Assembly (NCBI GenBank): GCA_028534125.1
Contig: CM052826.1
Coordinates: 19,778,001 to 19,842,000 of the forward strand
Source of the DNA: Lama glama
Taxonomy: Eukaryota
Direction: 5' to 3'
DNA: 64,000 bases
Of this stretch, positions 44,401-47,400 are shown piece by piece; the stretch's first letter is position 1; every line of letters begins with the position of its first letter. The position numbers and the translations under genes are program-made. The notes beneath the pieces were generated by a model, which saw only the letters and a list, made by a program, of their open reading frames with translations, did no database searches and had not been told where the DNA came from.

Positions 44401-47400
44401 TTCACGGTCACACGTAGGCAGACATGAACACACTGTTACACACAGAGGTGCACACACACATACAGAGCATTTCTCCCCCATCACTTGCTAACCACTTCTC
44501 TCTGCCTGTTCAGACACTCGGGTTGGGAACTGTTTCCTGGACACACACGACCGAGGGGATGGTGGCATTTCCTGCAGTGCTGAGATCGGAGTTGGCGTCA
44601 CCCGAGCATCCTGCTGTTGCTCCCTGGGACAGGCCTGGGGCAACCCCTGTGAGCTGTGCCCAATGGCCAACACCAGTGAGTCCCCGGAGGGGTGGGAGCA
44701 GGGGAAGGCCTGAGCCACAGAGACCTAGCCCTGGTCCAGGCCTCCTCTGGGCTTGGGGGGCTCATCTCTGCTAAGGGAGGGACACTGGGAACCAGAGAGG
44801 GAGAAGGGCTCACCCTGGGCCACACAGCATCTTCTCAGCAGTCCACTGTCTAGGCCTCTCCCCAAAGTCTCTTTCTGCCATCTCTTCCTGCAAATTCTTT
44901 GTGTGTTTCTATTCACTTGCTTGCTCAGTCAGTCAACAAACATTGAGAAGTTCTCTGTGCCCTCTACTAGGGGACAGGGACCTAGAGAAGGATGAACCAC
45001 AGCTGCTGTACACTGTCCCTCACCTGTAAACCAACAGTCCCCAGACTGTTAAGAGTAGAGCTGTCCTAAGGGTCTGTTTGAGGCATAGCGATGGCTCAGG
45101 AGGAAGCCATGGAGAGGAAAGGGGGAAGGGAAGGCTTCTCAGGACAGGGGCTTGAATAAGGTTTTGAAGGATGAGTAGGAGTTTTTCAGGCAGGGTAGGA
45201 GGAAGGGTGTGTGGTGCAGTGGGAACAGCATGTGCAAAGTCCTCAGGTATGAAACAGGGAGGCACTTGTCCACCTATTCAGGTGTGTGTGTCTGTGTGTG
45301 TATGTCCAGGGTCTTCCTTTCATGGGGGAAGCTTGTGGTCACACTAGGCTCTGGTTTTGGATCACAAAGAATCCCTACTCCCCAACTATTACAAGATCCA
45401 TCTGCTCACATATTGAATGTGAACACATGTGTACACACATACACAGAAACATCCCCCCAGATCTGTCAGGATTGGACCAACGTCTCTTGGCCCTGAGAGG
45501 CTGAGGAGGTAAGGGGATGTAGTTTCTGTGATAAAAGAATGCAGGGCCCACTGTTGAGCCCTTTTTAGGGCCCCTCCCCTCCCCTGCTTCCCCTGAGCTT
45601 TGCCCAGATACCCCAGCCCACAGCCTCTCACAAGAGCCTACTTCCCTTGCAGCTGAGTACAGAACCCTGTGCCCGGGGGGTGAGGGCTTCCGGCCCAATC
45701 CCATCACTGTCATTCTGGAAGGTGAGTTCCTGGTAGACCATCCATCCGTGCACCCACTGACTGACCCGTCTCTCATTCCCACCTACCAAAAACCAGAGTT
45801 GGGCAGCTTTGGTGGTGGTGGGGAACCAGATTCTCTCAGCCATTTCTTCTTCTACCCACTCATATATTGATCTGTCTTTCCATCCATCCCCCATCCACCC
45901 ACCCATCCCCATCTATCTATCCATCATCCATCCGTTCATCAGCCTATCCATCCATCTTTCCTTCCTTCCATCCATTCCTTATCCACCCATCTACCCGTCC
46001 ATCCATTCTCCATCCATCCATTATCCTACTTTCCTTCCTTCCTTCCCTCTTTCCAAGCACAAACATTCATCCATCCACTCATCAACTATCCATTCATTCA
46101 TCCGTCTACTCACTTACCTACCCACCCCTCCATCCACTCATTTATCTTTCCGTCCCTTGACCCGTTTGCTTATCCACTCATCCATTACTTTTCATATCCA
46201 TCCATCTACCCATCCACACATTCATCCTCCCACGTCTGTCCATCCATCCATCCATCCATTCATGTATTCACCTACGTACTCACCCACCTATCCATTCACC
46301 CATCTGTCTTCTTATTCATTCTCACTCTTGCTTGTCCACACATTCACTACTTTTTATATCCATCCACCCACCCACCTACCCCCCCATCCATCTATCCCAT
46401 GCATACATGCATCCATCCATGCTTCTATCCAGAGGGGATAATGAGATTGAAGAGTTCTATCAAGAGGGAACTTTTGGATGGATGGATGAATGGATGGATG
46501 GGAGGATGGACTATCCAATGAAGGGAATGAGGATGAATCCAGGGTGACATTGACCCAAGAGTGTCACCCATTGGGTGCAGCCTCCAAGAGAGGTCCTGGC
46601 CTGAACCCTCCAAACATCCAGCAGCTCTTCTTTAAGGTATTCTTAAAGAAGCAAGACTCACTCCTCCAGAGCCCCAGAGAGCCCAAGGCAAGGTGTGGGT
46701 GTCCCCCTGAGTCCTCTGCTTGAGTTTCGCTTCCAAGCATGACTTCCTCACGTCCTGACAGACATTGACGAATGCCAGGAGTTGCCTGGGCTGTGCCAGG
46801 GGGGCGACTGTGTCAACACCTTCGGCAGCTTCCAGTGTGAGTGCCCACCTGGCTACCACCTCAATGAGGACACCCGCATCTGTGAAGGTGAGCTTGGGCC
46901 AATCCTTCCCTCCCTGCCTTCCTGCCCAGCCTCACCCCACCTTCAGATATGGGGGCCTGAAATGCTCTCCAGAGTCTGCTCACCTGCCTGCTGCCTGGGA
47001 CCCACTGAAAGGGTTGGGAAGCTTCCCTGGAATGCCCCGACCTATCCTCCGTTCTGCTGCCTCCTCCTCCCCGTTGCCTGACCTCCAGCCTCCTTCCCAC
47101 CCAGAATGGATGGGTGAATAAGCAAATGGGTCAATGGATGGAAAAATAAATGAGTGGCTGGAGGGGTGGGTAGGTAAGTGAGTAGATGGATGAATGAATG
47201 GATAGTAGATGAGTTGGTGGATGAAGCTTGGAAGGAGGAAAAAAAGGAAGGAAAGTAGGATAATGAATGCATGGGGAATGGATGGATGGGTAGATGGTGG
47301 ATAAGGGATGGACAGATGGAAGGAAGGATGGGTGGATAGACTGATGCATGTACAAGTGTTTCACCTCTTGGGTTGAATCTTAAGTATTTCATCTTTTGGA

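Follow-up and report, generated by a model that had tools for sequence, protein, structure and literature searches.

An inverted copy around the cbEGF23 exon of camelid FBN3 and its predicted RNA stem: likely a neutrally drifting fossil of DNA repair

So far, the evidence for lineage-specific exon skipping caused by inverted intronic pairs comes almost wholly from primate Alu elements. The window analyzed here, a stretch of 64,000 nucleotides from the llama Lama glama (contig CM052826.1, positions 19,778,001 to 19,842,000), harbors a strong, non-primate and transposon-free pair of this kind at an in-frame exon near an integrin site, which makes it a clean test of whether pairing suffices. How did the pair arise, and does it influence the exon between its arms? 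If it drives skipping, camelids own a separate fibrillin-3 isoform; if it does not, a ~225-bp stem can persist around a constrained exon, almost without effect, over tens of millions of years. As the evidence stands, the locus is likely an ordinary repair fossil. Inverted exon-flanking pairs are already known as a class; this locus is new to print in the literature searched, where no publication on it was found (subscription papers were not covered).

The exons of the window match alpaca and dromedary fibrillin-3 proteins at or near 100%, and the gene is therefore camelid FBN3 and not the fibrillin-1 gene cited for context in the preliminary description; three of the four dromedary models are named fibrillin-3 and one fibrillin-2. 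The exons concerned are as follows:

44514..44675, plus strand: first TB4 exon, with the RGD codons at 44552-44560 (from translation and splice sites)
45653..45721, plus strand: second TB4 exon, 69 nt, phase 1/1 (from sequence and protein models)
46762..46887, plus strand: cbEGF23 exon, 126 nt, AG/GT, phase 1/1, with a low-scoring acceptor and an ordinary-to-strong donor
48387..48512, plus strand: cbEGF24 exon, the downstream acceptor of a potential skip junction

The first TB4 exon matches residues ~1532-1594 of alpaca FBN3, with RGD at 1552, and the end of the second one (45721) is the upstream donor of the potential skip junction. The exon at 46762-46887 matches fibrillin-1 cbEGF23 in 1UZJ (residues 122-162); the domain is identical to that of alpaca and dromedary FBN3, with 98% identity to pig FBN3 vs. 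83-85% to FBN1/FBN2. The introns flanking this exon comprise 1,040 and 1,499 nt, and its splice-site dinucleotides and phases agree with the earlier statement that the arms lie in two introns around one 126-nt phase-1/phase-1 exon, the skipping of which would keep the frame. The arms and their surroundings are the following:

45840..46436, plus strand: degenerate CCAT-type tract with an internal direct duplication, likely source of the copy
45937..46186, plus strand: arm A, the likely template, inside the CCAT tract (from self-BLAST and alignment)
46437..46545, plus strand: short GGAT-rich stretch, predicted to fold back on the 3' side of the CCAT tract as an inner hairpin
47105..47346, plus strand: arm B, likely derived from arm A by inverted copying, with sharp ends and gaps of 7 nt and 1 nt relative to it
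47347..47566, minus strand: fragment of an old L1 ORF2, broken off exactly at the end of arm B
47588..47718, no strand given: second dispersed-repeat fragment

In the self-BLAST of the 64-kb window, 45937-46186 aligns with 47346-47105 at 86.4% identity over 250 columns (297 bits), which is the top non-self match, the runner-up reaching 155 bits. The global alignment of the arms contains 216 matches, 26 substitutions (20 transitions and 6 transversions) and 8 gap columns, so the identity is 89% when gaps are left out. Both alignments reproduce exactly the coordinates of the colinear inverted copy reported at the outset. Arm A begins 215 nt from the upstream donor and ends 575 nt from the cbEGF23 acceptor. 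A perfect 28-nt block (46105-46132 vs. 47159-47186), previously pointed out as notable, is indeed exact but does not qualify as a conserved core: 26 scattered substitutions and two indels yield a run of at least 28 nt with P = 0.60.

The local alignment of the arms scores 328, and the highest score among shuffled sequences was 121; in eight shuffle nulls of 500 each (k-let 2-6; blocks of 4, 8 and 16), the real score was reached by 0/500 in every null, i.e., by 0/4,000 in total. Against arm B, the remainder of the same tract reaches only 37-41. Thus, the identity of the arms lies above the level of compositional CCAT/GGAT complementarity, as had been maintained, and compositional coincidence is refuted as the cause of the pair. 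In the genome search with arm B, arm A (297 bits) was followed by the next CCAT/GGAT tract at 106 bits and 73%; other genomic tracts matched it at ~70% over the full length and at up to 90% in short pieces, with at most 106 bits. The arms are a two-copy, non-transposon pair, a third genomic copy not being found among the 40 of 224 candidates that were scored, and the same count of two copies confirms that this is not a SINE pair. The Rfam search returned no match at the gathering score; its single match had 23.6 bits vs. a gathering score of 230 (E 0.078).

Such a pair is also exceptional among comparable loci. Among 46 further CCAT/GGAT tract loci of 10 kb each, none carried an inverted tract copy of at least 100 nt and at least 80% identity within ~5 kb, and a general proneness of CCAT tracts to inverted copying was rejected on this ground; most of these loci show direct duplications. 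Two of the 46 (L037 and L076) have a second tract of opposite orientation 2-4 kb away, matching over 33-78 nt only, and 11 control stretches contained only short inverted pairs of ~105-120 nt. On another contig, a self-complementary stretch (L021:5861-6133) adjoins a GGAT tract. In the 462 kb around the gene, scanned in 10-kb pieces for inverted pairs of at least 100 nt, at least 75% identity and a gap of up to 3 kb (pairs crossing the piece borders being missed), eight inverted pairs were found. Seven of them are repeats with 44-60 copies at no more than 129 bits, much weaker than the FBN3 arms at 297 bits; the latter form both the sole two-copy (non-SINE) pair and the strongest one.

Over 46900-47460, contigs were compared from three RNA runs and from a DNA run, X10, which yielded none of the locus itself, a gap without evidential weight. 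An RNA-library contig from run X17, covering 47150-47300, contains 151 nt of arm B with two transversions, and a contig from run X16 shows 12 differences and a 7-nt insertion that equal arm A; both have a depth of 2-3 and an unknown strand and possibly represent DNA. Each arm is therefore present in an independent RNA-library contig, which answers the concern about an assembly artefact, although no contig bridging either junction of arm B occurred among the runs over 46900-47460. Indirectly for arm B, 14 DNA-type runs, five of them possible sources of this DNA and the other nine from five studies, contain 0.94-0.99 of the words of 42100-49070. A chance resemblance of CCAT and GGAT microsatellites, a pair of dispersed repeats or an error of assembly, to which the low complexity of both arms and the many similar tracts in the genome might point, retains a negligible probability, since no shuffle out of 4,000 approaches the score, other tracts match at ~70%, the divergence is transition-biased, and each arm is found in an independent library.

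Regarding the origin of the pair, arm A sits inside a CCAT tract of ~600 nt, whereas arm B ends sharply between non-GGAT flanks. The 7 extra bases of arm A have a counterpart in an older internal duplicate of the tract; polarizing the changes via this duplicate, which is ~70% identical, is informative for the 7-nt gap and too noisy for the substitutions. Arm A being embedded in the tract and having this counterpart, and arm B being sharp-ended, the latter is likely the derived copy and the former its template. The older direct duplication itself spans 46028-46353 with a period of ~160 nt and ~70% identity. The GGAT-rich stretch at 46437-46545, directly after the tract, possibly records a second, older fold-back event.

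Arm B ends at 47346, exactly where the old L1 ORF2 fragment is cut. Five of seven related L1 copies continue past the cut point and are mutually alignable for most of 600 nt, and this continuation was not found near arm B. One related copy matches residues 763-826 of L1 ORF2p (E 6e-15); a 21-aa piece of the fragment in the window had no PDB match. The L1 copies are 70-75% alike vs. 89% (ungapped) for the arms, so the L1 is far older than the arms and represents the insertion site rather than the vehicle. An L1-mediated origin was rejected on account of this age and of the lack of a visible tail or target-site duplication.

[quoted passage not shown] The arms likewise form an inverted copy of a nearby template, the feature expected of MMBIR/TMEJ. 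In that study, the search covered 100 bp only, and microhomology of 2-12 bp was present at 80% of junctions (PMC8421209). The FBN3 copy is longer (242 nt) and lies farther from its template (918 nt) than this 100-bp range, and any microhomology would be unrecognizable after ~12% divergence. At the junctions of this old event, none was seen on the right, and up to 2 nt with a 1-base gap on the left. The evidence from the sequence fits a break in the old L1 repaired by an inverted templated insertion: a repair polymerase at the break would have moved to the opposite strand ~1 kb upstream, copied ~250 nt and been rejoined. Overall, it is likely that template-switching DNA repair placed an inverted copy of the CCAT-rich intron in the next intron once, tens of millions of years ago.

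The K2P distance between the arms is 0.118. At neutral substitution rates of 2.2 to 1.1 x 10^-9, this corresponds to an insertion age of roughly 27-54 My (about 25-55 My). Among 28 local SINE pairs, just two show higher similarity than the arms. With 7 differences across ~339 intronic bases, run X17 nevertheless retains arm B (depth 2), which hints that arm B may predate a deeper camelid split. The same run has five differences clustered in 15 nt at 47038-47052 (depth 2.5), perhaps from one small complex change in a more distant camelid, perhaps from an error.

If pairing in the RNA were under selection, G-U changes would be favored over A-C changes. Of the arm transitions, 11 of 20 are wobble-compatible and 9 are not (p = 0.41). 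This split, together with a longest perfect run of the expected length, gives no indication that pairing is under selection, and the decay of the arms (20 transitions to 6 transversions) is likely neutral, judging from the alignment. Every G-vs-A difference (45997, 46104, 46152 and 46164) is a CpG in arm A and a CpA in the copy; the four represent either CpG decay in arm B or A-to-G gain in arm A. A-to-G edits in the arms were not seen in the arm-B contig of X17 (0 of 50 A) or in the arm-A contig of X16 (0 of ~31 A), at a depth of 2-3. Four A>G places of X16 were rejected as editing, since they equal arm A/B differences and the contig matches arm A.

At the same time, the exon between the arms is tightly constrained. 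The identity of its domain to pig is rank 2 of 30 domains, and the rank is 2-7 against eight references. TB4 is followed by cbEGF23 in 40/40 scored proteins, 17 of 57 without the locating motif having been left out, and the cbEGF23 pattern was matched in 104/107 proteins; of the other three, two are sequence variants and one is a fish model without the domain. The exon is present in 4/4 dromedary models and in one alpaca RefSeq model, all of them predictions, the dromedary ones missing other exons, the coverage extending to 15 of the 336 cluster members.

In the predicted RNA fold (MFE -698 kcal/mol), the arms pair with each other, with ~225 expected A-B pairs around a 918-nt loop, close to the ~240-bp stem and ~920-nt loop originally envisaged. 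The predicted duplex of arm A and arm B has -394 kcal/mol, against -156 kcal/mol for the SINE pair of the gene and -199 kcal/mol when arm B is paired with the remainder of the CCAT tract; the inner hairpin predicted for 46437-46545, at ~-90 kcal/mol, is a weak competitor. Once arm B is transcribed, the ~225-bp duplex would loop out 918 nt and the real splice sites would stay accessible. Indeed, the predicted accessibility is 0.51 for the real acceptor and 0.30 for the donor, and in silico removal of one or the other arm leaves both values unchanged, so any skipping would operate by bringing 45721 and 48387 closer and not by blocking of the sites. Of the features of TBXT-type loop-out, two are found here, namely complementary arms around one exon and a stable predicted short-range duplex; another, arms that are SINE/Alu copies, is absent, the arms existing as two copies only. 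According to the model, the FBN3 pair would work like an Alu pair without being one.

Taken together, these findings make it reasonably probable that a repair-made inverted intron copy has been drifting neutrally, its arms pairing in the nascent RNA with, at most, minor in-frame skipping of cbEGF23. Exon definition would mostly win, the main mRNA would keep cbEGF23, and the pair would decay like ordinary intron DNA.

The alternative that survives best is a loop-out switch, in which the stem drives more than 10% in-frame skipping and gives rise to a camelid isoform joining TB4 to cbEGF24, with an altered setting of the RGD site. Its closest precedent is the AluSx1-AluY pair of TBXT, likewise an inverted pair in two introns around one exon, with a span of 1,448 bp vs. 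1,410 bp between the outer ends of the FBN3 arms (PMC10901737). In the mouse, an engineered reverse-complement intron copy in Tbxt causes skipping: when a perfect 297-bp reverse complement of intron 5 was placed in intron 6, skipping exceeded that obtained with the Alu pair of 228/297 matches (PMC10901737). The FBN3 layout is the same as in this Tbxt-insRCS design, with the reverse complement of the upstream intron in the downstream intron. At a similar distance between the arms, the FBN3 stem (216/250 matches) surpasses the TBXT Alu pair (228/297) in strength; in geometry and strength together, it equals or exceeds the latter. The FBN3 pair, by contrast, is old, arose naturally, involves no transposon and has an identity of 86%; skipping and a phenotype have been demonstrated for TBXT (PMC10901737), whereas the FBN3 pair is known from the sequence and a predicted fold.

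Deletion of an arm cut skipping in 7/8 Alu minigenes, by ~1 to more than 40 PSI, and 4.69% of exon-straddling inverted matches in human are non-Alu and non-L1, the "generally unique" class to which the FBN3 pair would belong, although it differs in consisting of a copied degenerate CCAT microsatellite; the association of pairing and skipping was lost for mouse B elements (PMC13019944). Human Alu pairs, both orientations taken together, number 21,271 around constitutive vs. 28,620 around skippable exons; many inverted pairs flank constitutive exons, and the difference in fold energy is small (PMC13019027). The FBN3 locus shares with the exons studied in these two papers a stable predicted duplex within 1 kb and a short exon with a low-scoring acceptor. 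Exons with weak acceptors are the class most tied to loop-out, with a weak correlation (R2 0.06) (PMC13019027). By a home-made matrix built from 29-31 exons, the acceptor of cbEGF23 comes last among 32, and in the intron-only version of that matrix it scores -1.2 vs. 1.2-15.7 for 29 reference acceptors; the donor is adequate. At 46742-46761, a branch-like motif abuts the AG of this acceptor, the lowest-scoring of the cbEGF acceptors of the gene.

A variant in FBN2 cbEGF23 alters cell adhesion, and FBN3, the expression of which falls after birth, is without a clear (unequivocal) disease link (PMC9322447), so the effect of a skip would have meaning, though a modest one, and might be tolerated. 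As to the expected change in the context of the RGD site, skipping would join TB4 to cbEGF24, and the RGD codons, two exons upstream, would stay in the mRNA. The in-frame skip and the rank of the pair as the strongest in 462 kb speak for the loop-out switch as well. Against it stand the lack of a selection signature in the arms, the tight constraint on the cbEGF23 domain, the inclusion of the exon in 5/5 camelid models, and the low R2 and home-made matrix behind the argument from acceptor weakness. No splice joints were seen in the RNA contigs over 46900-47460 (depth 2-3). Overall, the loop-out switch seems unlikely.

Its broader version would regard the locus as a natural, transposon-free Tbxt-insRCS, in which a repair accident gave camelids an isoform lacking cbEGF23, and the stem hides a poison exon of its own making, so that the pair became locked in. 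This appears rather improbable. It involves two further features at the left end of arm B:

47076..47104, plus strand: candidate cryptic acceptor, the AG of which (47103-47104) directly abuts the left junction of arm B
47105..47173, plus strand: candidate 69-nt cryptic exon in arm B (from splice-site scoring; predicted to be paired)

To the left of arm B, a branch-like motif (~47078-47082) and a pyrimidine tract precede the junction AG, which scores 12.9 vs. a median of 9.7 for 29 real acceptors and is second of the 100 AGs in the intron, behind the real downstream acceptor only. Donor-like sites at 47170, 47174 (the best) and 47178 lie in the perfect 28-nt block; at 47174, the U1 match reaches 9.0, compared with 7.5 for the real donor, and is exceeded in only two of the 29 other real donors. 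The candidate exon is in frame and has a stop at codon 6. Hence the suggestion that the copy created a stop exon, and that the pairing mainly hides it or permits a regulated NMD switch. The cryptic donor is fully paired in the predicted fold, and it is still mostly paired (P unpaired 0.07) without arm A, which weakens the suggestion. Three further AGs in the same 217 nt score 6.9-12.3, and donor-like motifs occur in 17/46 GGAT-oriented tracts, so these motifs are a by-product of the repeat. GGG starts commonly silence exons, and the candidate has five of them. In the thin data available, X17 runs unspliced through the donor, and no joint or loose end was seen at 47104 or 47173. The idea being post hoc, a self-masking poison exon is doubtful. 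Under the favored reading of a neutrally decaying repair product, pairing would also cover the cryptic donor cluster borne by the copy, which may help explain the tolerance of the insertion.

Back-splicing into a 126-nt circular RNA, the other outcome proposed for the stem, is very improbable. Complementary flanking introns, which favor circles, are common to exonic circRNA loci and the FBN3 locus, where the stem is predicted (PMC6376117). Single-exon circles derive from long exons (medians of 169-253 nt) with very long flanking introns (PMC6376117). The cbEGF23 exon (126 nt) and its introns (1,040 and 1,499 nt) are short for such a circle and lie outside this usual profile, so the claim of circularization was not upheld.

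Elsewhere in the window, an ATTC-type tract without an inverted partner is located in a later FBN3 intron (59996-60102). Farther downstream of the arms, FBN3 contains an inverted SINE pair (49092-49243 and 52693-52840) with 76% identity over 160 nt.
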